Below are positions 7,978 to 61,453 of a stretch of 64,000 nt of DNA, one piece after another; position 1 is the stretch's first letter; the number at the start of each line of letters is the position of its first letter. The notes beneath the pieces were generated by a model. The model saw only the letters and a list, made by a program, of their open reading frames with translations. It was not told where the DNA came from and ran no database searches. The DNA comes from Escherichia phage GoldenSnicker. The position numbers and the translations under genes are program-made. Where the stretch lies: the sequence record OR896832.1. The stretch is one strand, 5' to 3'.

Positions 7978-8013
7978 AATATATTCCTCAGTGTTTTTTG
8001 TCTTGATGGGAGT

Positions 8014-8042
8014 ATCTTACTACTCCCTTAATCCGGTGTCAA
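8014..8042 (-). promoter_or_regulatory. sigma70-type early promoter (TTGACA-17-TAAGAT) with hairpin GGGAGTA-N6-TACTCCC overlapping -10
   Basis: Minus-strand TTGACACCGGATTAAGGGAGTAGTAAGATACTCCC; ~35 nt upstream of ATG at 7977. Confidence 0.6.
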
Positions 8043-8236: not shown

Positions 8237-8265
8237 AGTATAGGGGATCGCCGATCCCCTGTCAA
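8237..8265 (-). promoter_or_regulatory. sigma70-type early promoter (TTGACA-17-TATACT) with palindromic GATC-containing spacer
   Basis: Minus-strand TTGACA GGGGATCGGCGATCCCC TATACT; spacer is a perfect inverted repeat with two GATC sites. Confidence 0.7.
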
Positions 8266-18320: not shown

Positions 18321-18382
18321 TATTAAACCTCTTCATAACATAACCATAACTTACTGCAACCGCCACAAAGACGGCTGCAACA

Positions 18383-18410
18383 ATCATATTAAAAATTGAG
18401 TGATTGTCAA
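18383..18410 (-). promoter_or_regulatory. sigma70-type promoter (TTGACA-16-TATGAT) upstream of gene 39
   Basis: Minus-strand TTGACAATCACTCAATTTTTAATATGAT ~60 nt upstream of gene 39 ATG. Confidence 0.45.
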
Positions 18411-18419
18411 GTATATGAC

Positions 18420-18593
18420 TCATGACACGCGCACATTTTTATCGTAATACCCGCCATTAATCCCGCGCGGGGCAGTCAATCCCTGTTTGCATTCTTTACC
18501 GCATTCAGGGCATTCTGCCTTTTCACGCTCGGAAATTTTGCGGATTTTCTGAAATTGACCGTGTTCTTCACAAGAATAATCGTATAATGGCAT
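18420..18593 (-). CDS. small zinc-ribbon protein (57 aa)
   Basis: Track ORF trimmed to ATG after dexA stop; CxxC..CPECG motifs. Confidence 0.5.
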   Translation of the reverse strand: MPLYDYSCEEHGQFQKIRKISEREKAECPECGKECKQGLTAPRGINGGYYDKNVRVS

Positions 18594-18594
18594 A

Positions 18595-23311: not shown

Positions 23312-24340
23312 TTAAAATTTACAATATTTCATAAACCGCATTTTAGCCATCAGACCTTGTACGGTGTTCTCTTTGATGTATTCCATGATCTGGTCGCGTG
23401 TAGCGCCCTCGTCCTGAATCATGGCGTTAACGTCTTTAGAATGCCACGGGCAGCGATCCCACAAAACAATCTTTTCCCCTGCATTGATAAACTTTTCCAG
23501 TCGGTGCATTGTATCGGCAGACCGTGGTTCCGCATCAAGTACAAACACTCGCTGATCAGGGAAAGGAATTTCATCTAATCCCAAAGTACCGCCAGTAATT
23601 GCACACCCGTTATCAATAAACAATGAATCGATCGGACCTTCTAAGAAATACACTGGCCTACTCGGATCGGCGCGTTCAAGACCATAGACCTTACTCGCTA
23701 ACTCATGAGTTTTAATCGTCATATATTTGGTCTTTCCGTAATCCTTTCTCAATGCTCGCCCCTGAATGGATTCTATCTTGTTCTCGCGGTTAAAGATAGG
23801 AATCACTAAACGCGGTTCAGGTTGTGGATTCTTGAAAGTATCAGCCTTAATGTGATTTGCTACCTTTTGCCATTCTCTCGTGAAATACAGAAGATCCCAT
23901 TTATCGTGGGGAATGCAACGATCACTGACATACTTTATTATAGGATGATTAGCCGGAAGAGTATCTAATCTCTCGCAGAAAGGCAATGTTTGCACTTTCT
24001 TAATCTCCGGCTTTTCTACCTTTTTCAGTGGCTTGAACGTGGTGTTCTTGTGGTCGCCTTGTTCCTTCCGTCGTTCCATAAGCCATTCCCTGAATAGGTC
24101 CGGCTTATATTGTTTAAGAAATTCACCTAACGGCTGATTGTAGTTACAGTTGAAACAACCACAACGCAAACTATCCTTATAGGTATAGATACGGAATCGC
24201 GCTTGAGTATGATTTTTCTTTGAGTCACCGCAGATCGGACAACTACAGACCAGCGTAAATGAGCTAGTATGCAACCGTTTAAAATTTCGTTCGCCGTATA
24301 TGGCTTTTTCCGCTATTTCATAATCTGCGTAGTAAATCAT
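23312..24340 (-). CDS. 61: DNA primase gp61
   Basis: 342 aa (same as T4 gp61); N-terminal zinc ribbon CSCPICGD..CGCFNC; toprim-like C-terminal region. Confidence 0.85.
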   Translation of the reverse strand: MIYYADYEIAEKAIYGERNFKRLHTSSFTLVCSCPICGDSKKNHTQARFRIYTYKDSLRCGCFNCNYNQPLGEFLKQYKPDLFREWLMERRKEQGDHKNTTFKPLKKVEKPEIKKVQTLPFCERLDTLPANHPIIKYVSDRCIPHDKWDLLYFTREWQKVANHIKADTFKNPQPEPRLVIPIFNRENKIESIQGRALRKDYGKTKYMTIKTHELASKVYGLERADPSRPVYFLEGPIDSLFIDNGCAITGGTLGLDEIPFPDQRVFVLDAEPRSADTMHRLEKFINAGEKIVLWDRCPWHSKDVNAMIQDEGATRDQIMEYIKENTVQGLMAKMRFMKYCKF

Positions 24341-24349
24341 AATAACCTC

Positions 24350-24553
24350 TTATAGCTCAAATTTCATGAAAGTTCCTACACTTTCATTTTCATTCTCTCC
24401 GTTTTCATCTAAGCCAAATTTATAGACACTACCATCTGGCGATGTGTAAGAGAATACACGAAAACGGCCTACCGGGTCAAGTTCTGTAAATTCATATTCT
24501 TTTCCGGCTTCAAAAAGTGCATATGTGCTTTTAAGACATTTCATCGTAATCAT
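24350..24553 (-). CDS. hypothetical protein (67 aa)
   Basis: Track ORF; ATG overlaps stop of upstream small ORF (ATGA). Confidence 0.5.
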   Translation of the reverse strand: MITMKCLKSTYALFEAGKEYEFTELDPVGRFRVFSYTSPDGSVYKFGLDENGENENESVGTFMKFEL

Positions 24554-24693
24554 TTAAGTGCCACCGACAACAGAATGAGAACTACACCAACATACATTGT
24601 GATCTCGGATAACTTTTCTGTTTTTGTTTTGTGTCCAGATAATCCGAAAACAACAACACCGACAATAGCGGACAGCAAGCCAACGATAAACAT
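24550..24693 (-). CDS. small membrane protein (47 aa, two predicted TM helices), not in ORF track
   Basis: Hand translation MFIVGLLSAIVGVVVFGLSGHKTKTEKLSEITMYVGVVLILLSVALK; stop overlaps next ATG. Confidence 0.4.
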   Translation of the reverse strand: MFIVGLLSAIVGVVVFGLSGHKTKTEKLSEITMYVGVVLILLSVALK

Positions 24694-24700
24694 GATGATA

Positions 24701-24877
24701 CTAAGCACCGTCTTTCTCCTTTTTGCGTTTTTCTTTACCCGCTACACTAGGTCCACGATTGGTAATAGATCCGCTCGTTTCACCTGCTGCGATCTTCTCA
24801 GGATTGCCGCCAGCATCGCCAGCGGTCATATCTTCTTTGAGTTTATTTTCTTCAACAAACTGTTTAAATCCAATCAT
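24701..24877 (-). CDS. small hydrophilic protein (58 aa), not in ORF track
   Basis: Hand translation MIGFKQFVEENKLKEDMTAGDAGGNPEK..; ATG overlaps stop of 24874..25251 (ATGA). Confidence 0.35.
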   Translation of the reverse strand: MIGFKQFVEENKLKEDMTAGDAGGNPEKIAAGETSGSITNRGPSVAGKEKRKKEKDGA

Positions 24878-25251
24878 AGAATAATCTCTTTCAGTAAGTC
24901 AACAATCTGGTCTTTCGTCAGTTTATCCTGATTCTCTACAATCTTGATAACACAAGCGTTAACATCTTTGCGAGTCACTCGGGAGATCGTTTTAATACGA
25001 TGAAACGGTTCGTAGAAATATACTGCTTCATTATAGAGCGCAGCAATTTTTCGACGCATTTGATCTTTATCTGACAAGAAAACAAGTGCTGTTTTATGAC
25101 CTTCTACACCCGCCACGTTATATAGTTCAGCAACACCCCAGCGACCTTCCGGTTCAATCATTCCGGCGTGTTTACCGTCGATAAAAATAAGAATATCTCC
25201 GTTGAATGCGGTTTTGAATGCTACATCTTCCGGCGTAATCATATTTTTCAT
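24874..25251 (-). CDS. hypothetical protein (125 aa)
   Basis: Track ORF. Confidence 0.5.
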   Translation of the reverse strand: MKNMITPEDVAFKTAFNGDILIFIDGKHAGMIEPEGRWGVAELYNVAGVEGHKTALVFLSDKDQMRRKIAALYNEAVYFYEPFHRIKTISRVTRKDVNACVIKIVENQDKLTKDQIVDLLKEIIL

Positions 25252-25281
25252 AATATCGTCTCCTTAGAGTTTCATTATAGA

Positions 25282-25917
25282 TCAAGCGAATGTAGAAAGC
25301 AAACGTTTTGTTTCTTTCAGTTGTCGTTCAAGATCTTTGCGTTTCTCTTTAAGTTGCATTTTAGCATTATTTCGCTGTTTTTCAACATCTTTATCAATGC
25401 TCTTATTCCAGTTATCAATATCAGAATAAGTTGGTATACCCAATTCTAGACCTAATGCGGTTGGATACAGGGTAACAGTCCATAAACCGCTAATCTTCTT
25501 AAATAGGTCGGGGTGTAGTGTACTATCTACATCTTCCGGTGTCAACTCTTTTTCTTCTTTCAGTGGTGGGATCTCGTCATATGGTTCCAGTGCATTTACT
25601 TTAATATCAGATACCTCATCAAAGAATCCGCGTACATCCGCAGGAAATACACAAGCAATTTCCCAACCGTGATCACGCAGAGAAGTAATATTTTTCACTC
25701 CCCCACCATGTGTGATGATTGATGTGACATTGCCATCAAGGTCCACCGAATTTACGAGAAATGGCTTATCGTCTGTCAGATCATTATAAAACTGTGCTTC
25801 GGCTGTAGTCATCTCCAGAAACAGATCTCGGATCGGACGACCATCAGGTGCGTTACCTTCCTTGAGAGTATAAAAGCGACTTACGATCCATTTTGGCGGT
25901 AAAGCATTAGCGATCAT
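25282..25917 (-). CDS. hypothetical protein (211 aa)
   Basis: Track ORF; RBS AGGAGATAT. Confidence 0.5.
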   Translation of the reverse strand: MIANALPPKWIVSRFYTLKEGNAPDGRPIRDLFLEMTTAEAQFYNDLTDDKPFLVNSVDLDGNVTSIITHGGGVKNITSLRDHGWEIACVFPADVRGFFDEVSDIKVNALEPYDEIPPLKEEKELTPEDVDSTLHPDLFKKISGLWTVTLYPTALGLELGIPTYSDIDNWNKSIDKDVEKQRNNAKMQLKEKRKDLERQLKETKRLLSTFA

Positions 25918-25967
25918 GTTATATCTCCTATCAAATCATTCACCAGCGCCCCGCAGGGCGCATTTTA

Positions 25968-27380
25968 TTAGAAAGTCATGTTATTTGCTAGCTCGTCGAG
26001 TTTTTCTCGTTTCTCGGCTTGCTGTGCGCTTTGTGGTTTAACTTGTGCATTCTCCTGATCTGCGATCTGGTTTGGTACTTCATACCAACGCTGATTGCCT
26101 TTTTTCACACCAACGTTAAACCGTGAATAATAGTTCTTATCACCGTAACGAGACTTGATCTGCTTCATGAGTTGGACGCCCATTTTAGCCAGGTCTTCGG
26201 TTTCGATAACACCCAACATAAAGTCGGCAGTAGCCGGAAGACCTGCTGATTCAGCGGTATCACTCATGTTAAGGTCGGAAGCATCCCAACCCGCGCGGGT
26301 AGTCTGTGCCGCAGTCCAACCAACAACATCCCACTTAACAAAAAATCCTCGCAGTTCTTCCGCAATCGCCTTAACTAGTGTGTAACTATTTTCAGAGTAT
26401 ACACGCAAGCGAGACGATGCGCAAATCCCCAGATAGTCAACAATCACAACATCAGGTTTAAACTGTTTCTTGAGTCGCAATTCATTCATTAACGCCTCAA
26501 AGTGATTGGAGTTCGCGCCACCAGTCGGATACTGCTTGATCATCAATTTTCCAACCGGACGATCTCCGATCTTCTTATTCTTAACACGCTTCATACGTGC
26601 GGAATATTCCGCAAAAGAAACATTACCATTATCCAATTCATCTAATGTAATGTCAAGCAAGTTTGCGTCGATACGTTTGGCTACGACATGCTCTGCCATC
26701 TCCATTGAGATATACAATACATCATAACCACATTCCATATAATCCGCAGCAAGAGAACATAATCCAAGCGATTTACCAACATTTACACCAGCAAGCAACA
26801 CATTTAGCGTTTTTCTTTCCGCACCTCCTTTCGTGATTTTATTCAACATCGGCAGCTTAAACGGGATCTTATTCGCCTTAGTCTGATATAGCAAGAATCG
26901 TTTTTCAAAGTCATTAAACCAGTCATGACCTACATCAGAATCAAACGTAATGGATAGTGCTTCCTGCATGATCTCAGGAATAGCACCCTCACTCGGCAAT
27001 TTCTTATTCTGTTTCTCTTTTGGTAGTTGTGCGTTCGCCTGAATCTCTAGCGCCCGTGACATTGCATTATACATGGCACGGTCACGAATAAATTTTTCGG
27101 TTTCCTTCATTAACCAATCAAGGTCTTCCGGTGTATTCTCAAGCGAATCAAGAAGAGTTTTAGCCCCTTCATATGTTGTCTGATTGCCTCTCTCCTTGTC
27201 TAAAGCAATCTGTAATGCAGTTGGCGTAGGAATGTTGGAATATTCGTCTACGTGCTTTTTAATCAGCTTATAAATCAGTTTTTCTTCGTCTTCGGTGAAG
27301 TAGTCCGCTTTAAGGTGAGGCCATACATTCGTAAAGAATGCGCCATTGTAAATCAACTGTGAAAAGATAGTTTTAATCAT
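25968..27380 (-). CDS. 41: replicative DNA helicase gp41 (DnaB-like)
   Basis: 470 aa; Walker A LLAGVNVGKS; RecA-like C-terminal domain; position between 61 and uvsX. Confidence 0.9.
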   Translation of the reverse strand: MIKTIFSQLIYNGAFFTNVWPHLKADYFTEDEEKLIYKLIKKHVDEYSNIPTPTALQIALDKERGNQTTYEGAKTLLDSLENTPEDLDWLMKETEKFIRDRAMYNAMSRALEIQANAQLPKEKQNKKLPSEGAIPEIMQEALSITFDSDVGHDWFNDFEKRFLLYQTKANKIPFKLPMLNKITKGGAERKTLNVLLAGVNVGKSLGLCSLAADYMECGYDVLYISMEMAEHVVAKRIDANLLDITLDELDNGNVSFAEYSARMKRVKNKKIGDRPVGKLMIKQYPTGGANSNHFEALMNELRLKKQFKPDVVIVDYLGICASSRLRVYSENSYTLVKAIAEELRGFFVKWDVVGWTAAQTTRAGWDASDLNMSDTAESAGLPATADFMLGVIETEDLAKMGVQLMKQIKSRYGDKNYYSRFNVGVKKGNQRWYEVPNQIADQENAQVKPQSAQQAEKREKLDELANNMTF

Positions 27381-27694
27381 ACATAGCCCCCAACTACACG
27401 CATAACAAAGGTCTTGAGTTTATACCAGAAAGTTTCTTTTTTCAACTTTTCTTCTGCTTCTTTGATCTGCGCGGTTAACGCCTTAATGACGTGTGGATAT
27501 ACCACATCACGATCTGACGGCGTGGAGTAGTCGACCACAATACCTTTAGTGTCTGGATCGTATTCAACATTATGAATATAGACAATATGATGCTCTCCCT
27601 CTTCATCAACAATTATCAATTCCTGAATAACTGTCTTCATTGCTTCTTGAATCAAGCCGTGTGCTTCTTCTAAACTTGTTGGTTTCTTATCCAT
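27377..27694 (-). CDS. hypothetical protein (105 aa), in the position of T4 gene 40
   Basis: Track ORF; conserved leader GAGAGGATTATATT ATG; overlaps gene 41 start. Confidence 0.45.
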   Translation of the reverse strand: MDKKPTSLEEAHGLIQEAMKTVIQELIIVDEEGEHHIVYIHNVEYDPDTKGIVVDYSTPSDRDVVYPHVIKALTAQIKEAEEKLKKETFWYKLKTFVMRVVGGYV

Positions 27695-27714
27695 AATATA
27701 ATCCTCTCTAGATA

Positions 27715-27740
27715 TGAAAAAGGGGCACGTAGCCCCTTTA
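27715..27740 (-). terminator. rho-independent terminator after uvsX
   Basis: Minus-strand AAAGGGGCTACGTGCCCCTTTTTC. Confidence 0.7.
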
Positions 27741-27749
27741 CTACCATTG

Positions 27750-28820
27750 TTATGCTAACATATCTTCGATTTCTTTGTCAACTGCTTCGTCGCTGATCAC
27801 TTGCCCCAGCTTATAATGATCGTTGATTGCTTCGTTAAACTTATCGTTTGTCAGAAGCGGTTTCCAGAACTCAATGCTATTGGTTTCTTTAGCACGGAAC
27901 TTGCGTTCTTCGGTTTCCATCTCTCCGGTCTCAGTATTCAGGATTGAACGAGAATACCAGCCGTTTGACGGTTTCACTACCCAACCTAACTCTACAGCCA
28001 ACTCCAGCAAACCGGAATAAGGATCGATGCCACCGCTAAATGTTACGCTAATCGGGAACTTAGATTTTTCTTTAACGGTTCGTGATTTTTCCGCATTCAG
28101 GATAAAATCATAACCAGTAATTTCGGTTCCTTCTTTCTGCTGACGACGACCAATAATGAAAACTTCATTGGCTGAATACATCGCGCCCGTACCGCCGGAC
28201 ATAACGGTCTTACTAAACATTTCTTGTGTTTCGTAAGTGTGGTTAATAGCGATGCACGGGATATCATTCATAGTCAGATATGGCGTCACCATACGGAACA
28301 AGCCTTTAAGTGCTTTAGCTCGCGTCATATCCTGTGCAGATTTCTCATTAATCGCGTCTTCAACTTCTTTTTTACTTGCTAAGTTACCGATTGAGTCAAT
28401 AAAGATGATCACTTTATCTTCACGGGTAATTTGCTCAAGCTGGTTCATGATTTCAAATTTAAGTTCTTCGATGTTCTTGATTGGAACATGCACCACGCGA
28501 TCAGGGTCTACACCCATAGACTCCAGATATGCGGAAGTAATACCAAACTCAGAATCAAAGAACAAGCACGCCGCATCAGGATTCTGTTTCATGTATGCAC
28601 TAACGCAAGTTAATCCCATGTTTGATTTAAAGTGCTTAGACGGACCAGCAAAGAAAATCAGACCAGATTGAAAGCCTTTTTTAAGATCACCTGAAAACGC
28701 AATATTCAGCATCGGGATCTTAGTGCGAGTATTTGTTTTTTCGTTAAAGAAGCTGGATTTAGACAGTACCGCAGTAGTTTTCAGGGTAGAGTTCTTTTTC
28801 AGTTTTTCCAGTACAGACAT
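27750..28820 (-). CDS. uvsX: UvsX recombinase (RecA/Rad51-like)
   Basis: 356 aa; RecA-fold motifs (..IFFAGPSKHFKSN.., ..VIIFIDSIGNL..); position as T4 uvsX. Confidence 0.88.
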   Translation of the reverse strand: MSVLEKLKKNSTLKTTAVLSKSSFFNEKTNTRTKIPMLNIAFSGDLKKGFQSGLIFFAGPSKHFKSNMGLTCVSAYMKQNPDAACLFFDSEFGITSAYLESMGVDPDRVVHVPIKNIEELKFEIMNQLEQITREDKVIIFIDSIGNLASKKEVEDAINEKSAQDMTRAKALKGLFRMVTPYLTMNDIPCIAINHTYETQEMFSKTVMSGGTGAMYSANEVFIIGRRQQKEGTEITGYDFILNAEKSRTVKEKSKFPISVTFSGGIDPYSGLLELAVELGWVVKPSNGWYSRSILNTETGEMETEERKFRAKETNSIEFWKPLLTNDKFNEAINDHYKLGQVISDEAVDKEIEDMLA

Positions 28821-28831
28821 TATTAATACCT

Positions 28832-29020
28832 CTATTCAGTTAATCCGTAATACTTTAATTGCTTCATTGTTATTCGATCTTTGTAGTGCTCTTGAATTAA
28901 CTTTTTCATCGCATCAACATCGATCGTCACAAATACTTCGTTGCTGTGATTTCCGTGAACTTTCTTGAAATGCTCTATGCCTTCCTCACGTTCACGTTTA
29001 ATCTTTTCAATGTCTCTCAT
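28832..29020 (-). CDS. hypothetical protein (62 aa)
   Basis: Track ORF trimmed to first ATG; only gene between gp43 and uvsX. Confidence 0.45.
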   Translation of the reverse strand: MRDIEKIKREREEGIEHFKKVHGNHSNEVFVTIDVDAMKKLIQEHYKDRITMKQLKYYGLTE

Positions 29021-33785: not shown

Positions 33786-33812
33786 TTAAAACGGGGAGTA
33801 TTTACACTCCCC
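33786..33812 (-). terminator. rho-independent terminator/attenuator between genes 45 and 44
   Basis: Minus-strand GGGGAGTGTAAATACTCCCCGTTTTAAT. Confidence 0.6.
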
Positions 33813-46025: not shown

Positions 46026-46054
46026 AGTATAGGGGATCTCGCGATCCCCGTCAA
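46026..46054 (-). promoter_or_regulatory. sigma70-type promoter (TTGACG-17-TATACT) with palindromic GATC-containing spacer
   Basis: Minus-strand TTGACGGGGATCGCGAGATCCCCTATACT. Confidence 0.65.
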
Positions 46055-49648: not shown

Positions 49649-49678
49649 AATATAATCCTCTCGTTGTTAAGTGGGAGT

Positions 49679-49706
49679 ATTATAGCATACTCCCTTCGCA
49701 TGTCAA
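49679..49706 (-). promoter_or_regulatory. sigma70-type promoter (TTGACA-16-TATAAT) with hairpin GGGAGTA-N-TACTCCC
   Basis: Minus-strand TTGACATGCGAAGGGAGTATGCTATAATACTCCC; -35 overlaps upstream stop codon. Confidence 0.65.
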
Positions 49707-50881: not shown

Positions 50882-50912
50882 AATATAATCCTCTCGTTGT
50901 TTAGACGGGAGT

Positions 50913-50941
50913 ATCTTACTACTCCCGTTTCATCATGTCAA
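50913..50941 (-). promoter_or_regulatory. sigma70-type promoter (TTGACA-17-TAAGAT) with hairpin GGGAGTA-N6-TACTCCC
   Basis: Minus-strand TTGACATGATGAAACGGGAGTAGTAAGATACTCCC. Confidence 0.6.
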
Positions 50942-55722: not shown

Positions 55723-55751
55723 AGTATAGGGGATCACCGATCCCCTGTCAA
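55723..55751 (-). promoter_or_regulatory. sigma70-type promoter (TTGACA-17-TATACT) with palindromic GATC-containing spacer
   Basis: Minus-strand TTGACAGGGGATCGGTGATCCCCTATACT. Confidence 0.7.
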
Positions 55752-61445: not shown

Positions 61446-61453
61446 TATTTATA
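61446..61453 (-). promoter_or_regulatory. T4 late-promoter-like TATAAATA box
   Basis: Minus-strand TATAAATA (plus tatttata) 33 nt upstream of ATG at 61412. Confidence 0.4.

Follow-up and report, generated by a model that had tools for sequence, protein, structure and literature searches.

The replicative helicase gene 41 of Escherichia phage GoldenSnicker (OR896832.1) is separated from the gene that follows it on the minus strand, dc2, by a 50-nt spacer, and this spacer holds a perfect GC-rich hairpin followed by the ribosome-binding region of dc2. The locus thus raises the question of which of its two strands the hairpin acts on, and whether it ends transcription, shapes the stability or translation of the message, or serves at the level of the DNA itself. 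Here, we address these possibilities using the whole stretch of 64,000 nt that was analysed, referred to throughout as the window, together with related sequences from Krischvirus and from more distant T4-like phages.

Genomic setting and structure of the hairpin

Over the 2.7 kb surrounding the hairpin, identity is 99.6% with Escherichia phage kaaroe and 98.9% with RB49, and this stretch matches 58 records of Krischvirus, the RB49-like genus of T4-type phages. The gene order on the minus strand, following the RB49 annotation, is 43, ORF025, uvsX, 40, 41, dc2, dc1, 61.1, two small ORFs and 61 (Table 1), with gene 41 encoding a protein 59% identical to T4 gp41. Beyond the spacer, dc1 and dc2 hold the place taken in T4 by dmd, 61.4, sp and 61.2. 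The two genes span 24874-25917 and code for proteins of 125 aa (Dc1) and 211 aa (Dc2); a Pfam search found no family for either product, tblastn with Dc2 gave matches in the 58 Krischvirus records only, with no homologue outside the genus, and an IMG/VR search for more divergent dc2-linked loci returned two, both from Krischvirus.

The preliminary description had placed the motif GCGCCC-cgca-GGGCGC in the gap after gene 41, and this is exact: on the plus strand, 25946-25961 reads GCGCCC CGCA GGGCGC and is followed by ATTTTATT, with 6 T in 8. Read in the direction of the operon, the spacer (25918-25967) with its borders runs UAA UAAAAU GCGCCC UGCG GGGCGC UGGUGAAUGAUUUGAU AGGAG AUAUAAC AUG, the hairpin starting 6 nt past the gene 41 stop codon and ending 28 nt short of the dc2 start codon. 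The 8 nt beyond the stem on the sense strand are UGGUGAAU, with 3 U, so the richer T-run does lie on the plus, non-coding side, as had been noted. This plus-side run is the complement of UAAUAAAAU, in which the stop codon of gene 41 is followed by another in-frame UAA and then by AAU. The predicted stability of the RNA is -14.2 kcal/mol on the minus (sense) strand, against -12.7 kcal/mol on the plus strand.

Table 1. Positions of the spacer elements and of neighbouring genes and signals (numbering of the window)
Feature	Position	Strand	Description
uvsX	27750-28820	minus	RB49 annotation
Gene 40	27377-27694	minus	RB49 annotation
Gene 41	25968-27380	minus	replicative helicase, 470 aa; from ORF list; RB49 'g41 DNA primase-helicase subunit'
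Nearest upstream sigma-70-like promoter	26628-26656	minus	inside gene 41; TTGACA-17-GATAAT, 11/12; RB49 'hypothetical early promoter'
Gene 41 stop codon	25968-25970	minus	TAA; from ORF list
A-rich 5' flank	25962-25967	minus	UAAAAU; first three bases are the second in-frame UAA; complement is the plus-strand T-run
Stem-loop	25946-25961	minus	5' arm GCGCCC 25961-25956; loop UGCG 25955-25952; 3' arm GGGCGC 25951-25946
3' flank	25930-25945	minus	UGGUGAAUGAUUUGAU; no U-run; AU-rich; predicted single-stranded
dc2 Shine-Dalgarno	25925-25929	minus	AGGAG; 7 nt ahead of ATG at 25917-25915; ribosome binding site in MN882349
dc2	25282-25917	minus	211 aa; from ORF list and RB49 annotation
Primase gene 61	23312-24340	minus	RB49 annotation

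Structures of this kind are far more frequent in the window than expected by chance. Two all-GC 6-bp stems with a 4-nt loop were observed where first-order Markov simulations expect 0.02 per 64-kb window, and stems with a length of 6 bp or more and five or more GC pairs show an approximately 11-fold excess in simulations of the same type (18 observed, 1.6 expected). Although intergenic DNA makes up 6.2% of the window, 15 of its 44 perfect hairpins are intergenic. The GCGCCC/GGGCGC stem itself occurs once in the window. In an Rfam covariance-model scan of 24000-29000 with E-values up to 5, nothing overlapped the spacer, the sole match being a chance-level 'drum' at 28058-28173.

The loop points to a probable role on the sense strand

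As a perfect stem reads alike on both strands, the orientation of such a hairpin is readable only from its loop and flanks. On the transcribed strand, the loop reads UGCG and belongs to the UNCG tetraloops, with C-G as the closing pair, C(UGCG)G, whereas the loop on the plus strand, CGCA, belongs to no stable tetraloop class. The same asymmetry is found at other gene ends in the window: seven of eight tetraloop hairpins lying just past stop codons, a count that takes in stems with G-U pairs, have a sense-strand loop of the GNRA or UNCG class (GAAA four times, GCGA, UUCG and UGCG) and none has one on the antisense strand, while the seven tetraloop hairpins that lie within genes include no GNRA or UNCG loop at all. 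The UUCG tetraloop was first found in T4 mRNA (PMC4371310, PMC1702504), and such loops are frequent in the intergenic stem-loops and terminators of that phage (PMC1702504). The GoldenSnicker hairpin resembles these T4-type elements in its short GC-rich, C-G-closed stem, in carrying a UNCG loop on the sense strand, and in its place directly past a stop codon in an early/middle operon; it differs in having UGCG (in its relatives UACG or UGUG) rather than UUCG in the loop, and in its lack of a U-tract.

The hairpin had been described earlier as oriented against the operon, a reading that the UNCG loop on the sense strand does not support; nor do the counterparts of the hairpin in other phages (described below), which carry UUCG, UACG or GAAA on the sense strand after gene 41. 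The best reading is that the hairpin acts in the sense-strand RNA and is not directed at antisense transcription.

Promoters and termination on the two strands

Public annotation is divided on the strand. At the hairpin, MK327932 carries a putative terminator on the minus strand and MN882349 a terminator on the plus strand (at the equivalent positions L002:3647-3662 and L005:487-507, respectively), and MK327941 also lists a putative terminator there. The plus-strand assignment amounts to an intrinsic terminator for antisense transcription, in which the hairpin followed by AUUUUAUU would halt polymerases running against the early operon, as the preliminary description had also suggested as one possibility. 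The plus strand does offer a stem followed by a T-run (GCGCCCCGCAGGGCGC then ATTTTATT), this being the better of the two runs, and a consensus scan lists the hairpin first among plus-strand terminator-like sites. What this strand does not offer is a predicted source of transcripts. A scan of the whole 64-kb window for sigma-70 promoters (TTGACA-N16-18-TATAAT, at least 11/12) found 32 near-consensus sites, every one of them on the minus strand, and the late-promoter consensus TATAAATA has a single site, at 61446-61453 on the minus strand, against 5.7 expected by chance; the number of promoter-like sites in a 12-kb consensus scan was no higher than in shuffled sequences. No credible plus-strand gene lies nearby, the loop on that strand is outside the stable classes, and gene 41, which ends in two stop codons in tandem (UAA UAA), accounts for the T-run.

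A further comparison comes from the terminator discriminant of d'Aubenton-Carafa and colleagues, which reportedly joins a weighted score of the T-tail to the energy of the stem per nucleotide. Taken as a relative ranking only, it gives -14.8 for the hairpin on the sense strand and -8.1 on the antisense strand, while five sense-strand hairpins of the window that do have U-runs score from +8.6 to +40.9. Of nine hairpins tested in the window, no other has an antisense value above its sense value, a point in favour of antisense termination, but the antisense value is itself still negative. Taken with the absence of an antisense T-run from the related RB16-type hairpins (see below), the promoter map speaks against the proposal, and we regard termination of antisense transcription as highly improbable.

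The sense strand fares no better as a canonical intrinsic (Rho-independent) terminator. The GC stem-loop is present, with six G-C pairs, a 4-nt loop and a predicted -14.2 kcal/mol, but the U-tract is not (UGGUGAAU, 3 U in 8), the site is absent from the minus-strand list of the terminator scan, and the hairpin does not stand at the end of a transcription unit, the dc2 start codon following 28 nt past the stem without a promoter of its own. Within the interval between the gene 41 stop and the dc2 start, the best hexamer pair matches 8/12, and no promoter of at least 11/12 was found on the minus strand anywhere from 26656 to 22771, a region that holds dc2, dc1, 61.1 and primase gene 61. The nearest upstream promoter lies inside gene 41; its transcripts would begin approximately 650 nt ahead of the stop codon of that gene and could reach dc2 only through the hairpin. 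Because dc2 through 61 need read-through, the hairpin cannot be a tight terminator, and it is a canonical terminator on neither strand. Given the 3 U in 8 and the discriminant of -14.8, the termination component on the sense strand may indeed be negligible.

Two side observations belong to the promoter map. The promoter inside gene 41 may be a dedicated promoter for dc2 through 61. Elsewhere on the minus strand, a 274-nt gap in our crude gene model at 18321-18594 folds at -79.5 kcal/mol and by eye appears to contain a short ORF, absent from the ORF list, in which Cys-x-x-Cys occurs twice (MPLYDYSCEEHG...CPECGKEC...), followed by an 11/12 promoter; judged by these motifs, the putative product is reminiscent of small zinc-ribbon proteins.

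Conservation within Krischvirus

Among nine Krischvirus sequences with up to 7% divergence, the 50-nt spacer varies at two sites, both of them interior loop bases (25953 and 25954), compared with 89 of 282 flanking third-codon sites (Fisher p = 1e-5). More broadly, a 64-nt region is kept with at most one mismatch in 58 of 58 phage records. The stem is unchanged in all sampled Krischvirus, for which reason covariation within it is not assessable, and the variation that does occur falls mostly in the loop, which reads UGCG, UACG or UGUG. Six one-mismatch records were read, and four of them (Sf20, kvi, SSG23 and Brandy) have UACG. This is the commonest variant, in which the change falls at the free N position of UNCG, and G-to-A at that position is seen in several lineages. 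The other two one-base differences read lie outside the stem-loop, with a U-to-C beside the stem in MIZ4 and a G-to-A 3 nt past the stem in GEC-3S as the sole changes in otherwise invariant 5' and 3' flanks, respectively. Loop positions U1 and G4 are invariant in all sequences read, and C3 is changed to U in two, RB49 and G2494, whose UGUG loop falls outside the UNCG motif; the UNCG class is therefore preferred and not obligatory.

The neighbouring spacers are, however, conserved to an equal degree, with 1 of 30 positions variable between dc1 and dc2 and 1 of 55, a loop base, between uvsX and 40, against 15% of third positions. The conservation is thus a constraint on spacers generally and confers no special status on the one after gene 41.

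This bears on the proposal that the hairpin and its flanks control translation by shaping the ribosome-binding region of dc2, or that the spacer is the operator of a protein. An example of such coupling would be pairing of the end of gene 41 (UUUCU and AAAU) with AUUU and GGAGA, which would keep the dc2 Shine-Dalgarno out of reach until the helix was opened by a ribosome ending its translation of gene 41. The minimum-free-energy fold of the 71-nt region does extend the hairpin with exactly those pairs, and the invariance of the entire spacer, stem and beyond, is what such a role would lead one to expect, as is the compact layout of stop codon, hairpin, Shine-Dalgarno and start codon in the closest counterparts of the hairpin, described in the next section. 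The extension, however, contributes only about 1.3 kcal/mol, makes up 4% of the ensemble and is missing from the centroid structure; it has no counterpart in the spacers of RB16-type phages, and the invariance extends to neighbouring spacers just as strongly. Translational control of dc2 therefore seems to us improbable. As a separate matter, RegB cleavage at the GGAG of the dc2 Shine-Dalgarno was considered and rejected: GGAGAUAUAAC agrees at 7 of 11 positions with the single-stranded consensus GGAGRAYARAA (PMC1702504), which may not be that of the RB49 RegB itself, and misses the strongly preferred A6, Y7 and A8.

Post-gene-41 hairpins across T4-like phages

To place the hairpin in a wider context, 80 IMG/VR loci were gathered with a gp41 profile and the sequence beyond each gene 41 stop codon was examined. 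An enterobacterial-type clade, comprising loci with gp41 55-63% identical together with Krischvirus, provided 29 distinct downstream sequences, and 21 of these have a hairpin of -9.6 kcal/mol or better starting between -2 and +6 nt from the gene 41 stop. Where the loop of these 21 hairpins is a tetraloop, it reads UUCG, UACG, UGCG or GAAA on the sense strand without exception (16/16). In the marine T4-likes sampled, with gp41 approximately 41% identical, no post-41 hairpin was found, and the feature is therefore limited to the enterobacterial-type clade. The best explanation for the GoldenSnicker hairpin is that it is the Krischvirus version of a stem-loop which most enterobacterial-type T4-like phages have at this place after gene 41.

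Three arrangements of the hairpin and its surroundings appear, here called Classes A to C. In Class A (L019, L031-37, L040 and L042), the stem is followed by a U-run, with 3-7 U in 8 (weak in L019 and L042), and then by an early promoter matching 9-11/12, the next start codon lying 54-96 nt away; these are terminator-plus-promoter modules. In Class B (Krischvirus, the RB16-type L015 and L016, L023 and L082), there is neither a U-run nor a promoter (at most 8/12), the next start codon is 13-28 nt away, and stop codon, hairpin, Shine-Dalgarno and start codon are all packed within 31-53 nt. Class C is T4 itself, where the hairpin between gene 41 and dmd (L007:3555-3612) is nested inside an early promoter, its 15-bp stem overlapping GTTTACA-N17-TATAGT. 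Across the post-41 hairpins, the presence of a U-run therefore tracks the presence of a downstream promoter. The RB16-type members of Class B have no T-run on the antisense side, so that this run is a peculiarity of Krischvirus and not what is conserved at the position.

In T4, the two arms of the stem occupy the DNA between the -35 box (GTTTACA) and the -10 box (TATAGT) of what appears to be an early promoter for dmd and overlap these boxes, and the post-41 DNA of this phage is possibly a terminator hairpin and a promoter in one.

Relation to PeSL cassettes and other intercistronic hairpins

Intergenic GC stem-loops of RB49 and phi1 have been treated as terminators or attenuators (PMC2839356), and the promoter-early stem-loop (PeSL) cassettes of these phages (Arbiol et al. 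2010, PMC2839356; Comeau et al. 2014, PMC4122927) are among the closest known systems and occur in the same genus. The hairpin shares with them a GC stem with G and C runs, an intergenic position, and the succession of GC stem-loop, Shine-Dalgarno and start codon of an ORFan, here dc2. It lacks their sigma-70 promoter and AT-rich UP region, with 8/12 as the best match, where the true PeSLs of the window have promoters of 10-12/12 (in the gaps at 49649, 50882, 31791 and 16074). Nor is its stem repeated, the repeated stems of the window being of the GGGAGTA... and AGGGGATC... types.

These two families, GGGAGTA...TACTCCC and AGGGGATC...GATCCCCT, are found at 8008-8027, 33793-33812, 49673-49694 and 50905-50928, and also at 8242-8260, 46032-46049 and 55728-55746, and they resemble the PeSL cassettes of RB49 and phi1.

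One PeSL member has been assayed for its effect on expression. The PeSL211/210 stem-loop lowered lacZ expression about as much as rrnB T1 (PMC2839356). In the RB49 genome sequence, from which we took it and from which the assay oligonucleotide may differ, this stem-loop reads GGGGAU-CACGU-AUCCCC followed by UAUACUAC, likewise without a U-run. A fall in lacZ expression does not separate termination from RNA decay. The earlier statement that the GoldenSnicker hairpin cannot terminate the minus-strand transcript is accordingly sound as to the missing U-run on the sense side, but too strong as a prohibition, a related stem-loop being able to cut downstream expression without one.

The resemblance to PeSLs also raises the possibility that the hairpin works at the level of DNA, as what remains of a PeSL-type recombination cassette or as one of its halves. 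It would then mark where core gene 41 gives way to the variable 41-61 region, and would serve modular gene shuffling and not an RNA function. G-run/C-run stem-loops of the PeSL type do mediate ORFan shuffling in RB49 and phi1 (PMC2839356), the hairpin stands exactly where a core gene borders on dc2 and dc1, genes confined to Krischvirus, and T4 carries different genes, dmd and others, at the same position. Against this, the promoter half is missing, the stem sequence is not repeated in the window, all 58 of 58 records carry dc2, with no difference in gene content seen at the junction, and the strand-specific bias towards UNCG and GNRA loops points to selection on RNA. We consider a role in recombination quite improbable.

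A second T4 comparison concerns the other end of gene 41. In T4, a 3' end mapped in vivo falls just past a stem-loop, within the 358-nt region that precedes gene 41 (Hinton 1989, as reported in PMC12152347). That stem-loop and the GoldenSnicker hairpin both belong to the uvsX-40-41 unit and to a polycistronic message that needs read-through, but the T4 site is upstream of gene 41 and ours downstream. The direct counterpart of the T4 site in the window is a sister hairpin between uvsX and 40 (27719-27739, minus strand), AAAGGGGC-UACGU-GCCCCUUU then UUCAUAUC, with no promoter after it. Its sole variable site among Krischvirus is the loop base 27727, and MK327932 annotates it as a putative terminator.

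Outside the phages, bacterial intercistronic hairpins such as the REP elements in malE-malF protect upstream mRNA from 3' exonucleases. By analogy, the hairpin could be compared with these stabilisers as a stable intercistronic stem-loop without terminator activity that would contribute to differential expression within an operon, although it has no sequence relation to REP elements, is much shorter and has a function assigned by inference only. In summary of these comparisons, the hairpin is of an already known kind: it is an ordinary member of the UNCG-capped intercistronic hairpins, and neither a canonical terminator nor a PeSL.

A probable leaky attenuator and 3'-end stabiliser

What, then, does a sense-strand hairpin without a U-tract do? 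With neither a U-tract nor a promoter downstream, it is at most a leaky attenuator, and we think it probably acts both as such and as a stabiliser of mRNA 3' ends on the sense transcript, with read-through into dc2-61. Attenuation and exonuclease protection are what we infer here; the structure itself, its sense-strand loop signature, its conservation, its shared position across genera and the need for read-through are observed.

The proposed sequence of events is as follows. The stem-loop would fold in the nascent uvsX-40-41 message, 6 nt past the gene 41 stop codon, where some polymerases may pause or stop while the rest continue into dc2, dc1, 61.1 and probably primase gene 61. 3' ends would arise at the hairpin or through cleavage in the AU-rich spacer just downstream, the 3' flank being a possible endonuclease entry site as judged from its predicted single-strandedness, and would then be shortened as far as the stem, which its C(UNCG)G cap makes very stable. 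RNase II, RNase R and PNPase, 3' exonucleases of the host, degrade T4 mRNAs (PMC3014915), and the capped stem would block 3'-to-5' enzymes of this type and so stabilise the helicase message. It is above all as an exonuclease barrier, giving messages that contain gene 41 a stable 3' end, that the hairpin would serve. The suggestion in the preliminary description of an RNA processing or stability element is thereby supported as a possibility. A non-exhaustive literature query found no Krischvirus transcriptome, Term-seq, transcript-end or half-life data with which to compare this scheme.

A bolder version would treat the post-41 hairpins that have no U-run, those of Krischvirus and the RB16-type phages, as a distinct non-terminating class, derived from terminator-plus-promoter modules by loss of both U-tract and promoter and acting purely post-transcriptionally, with the Krischvirus A-tract perhaps also able to block stray antisense polymerases. 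We hold this to be rather unlikely. If it were true, the helicase message would gain a stable 3' end, and cleavage in the AU-rich, conserved spacer would leave the dc2-61 message with a structured 5' end.

Implications

For the individual hairpin, the result carries little weight beyond the quality of annotation, its main value being to correct a strand assignment on which public Krischvirus records disagree. The practical lesson is that loop class, comparative context and the promoter map, and not the nearest T-run, should decide to which strand a symmetric GC hairpin is assigned. For the T4-like phages, the link between U-tract and promoter illustrates how, at a single conserved position of the genome, a terminator-promoter module may take the place of a read-through hairpin and vice versa, and this link could guide both the annotation of operons and the engineering of therapeutic RB49-like phages.
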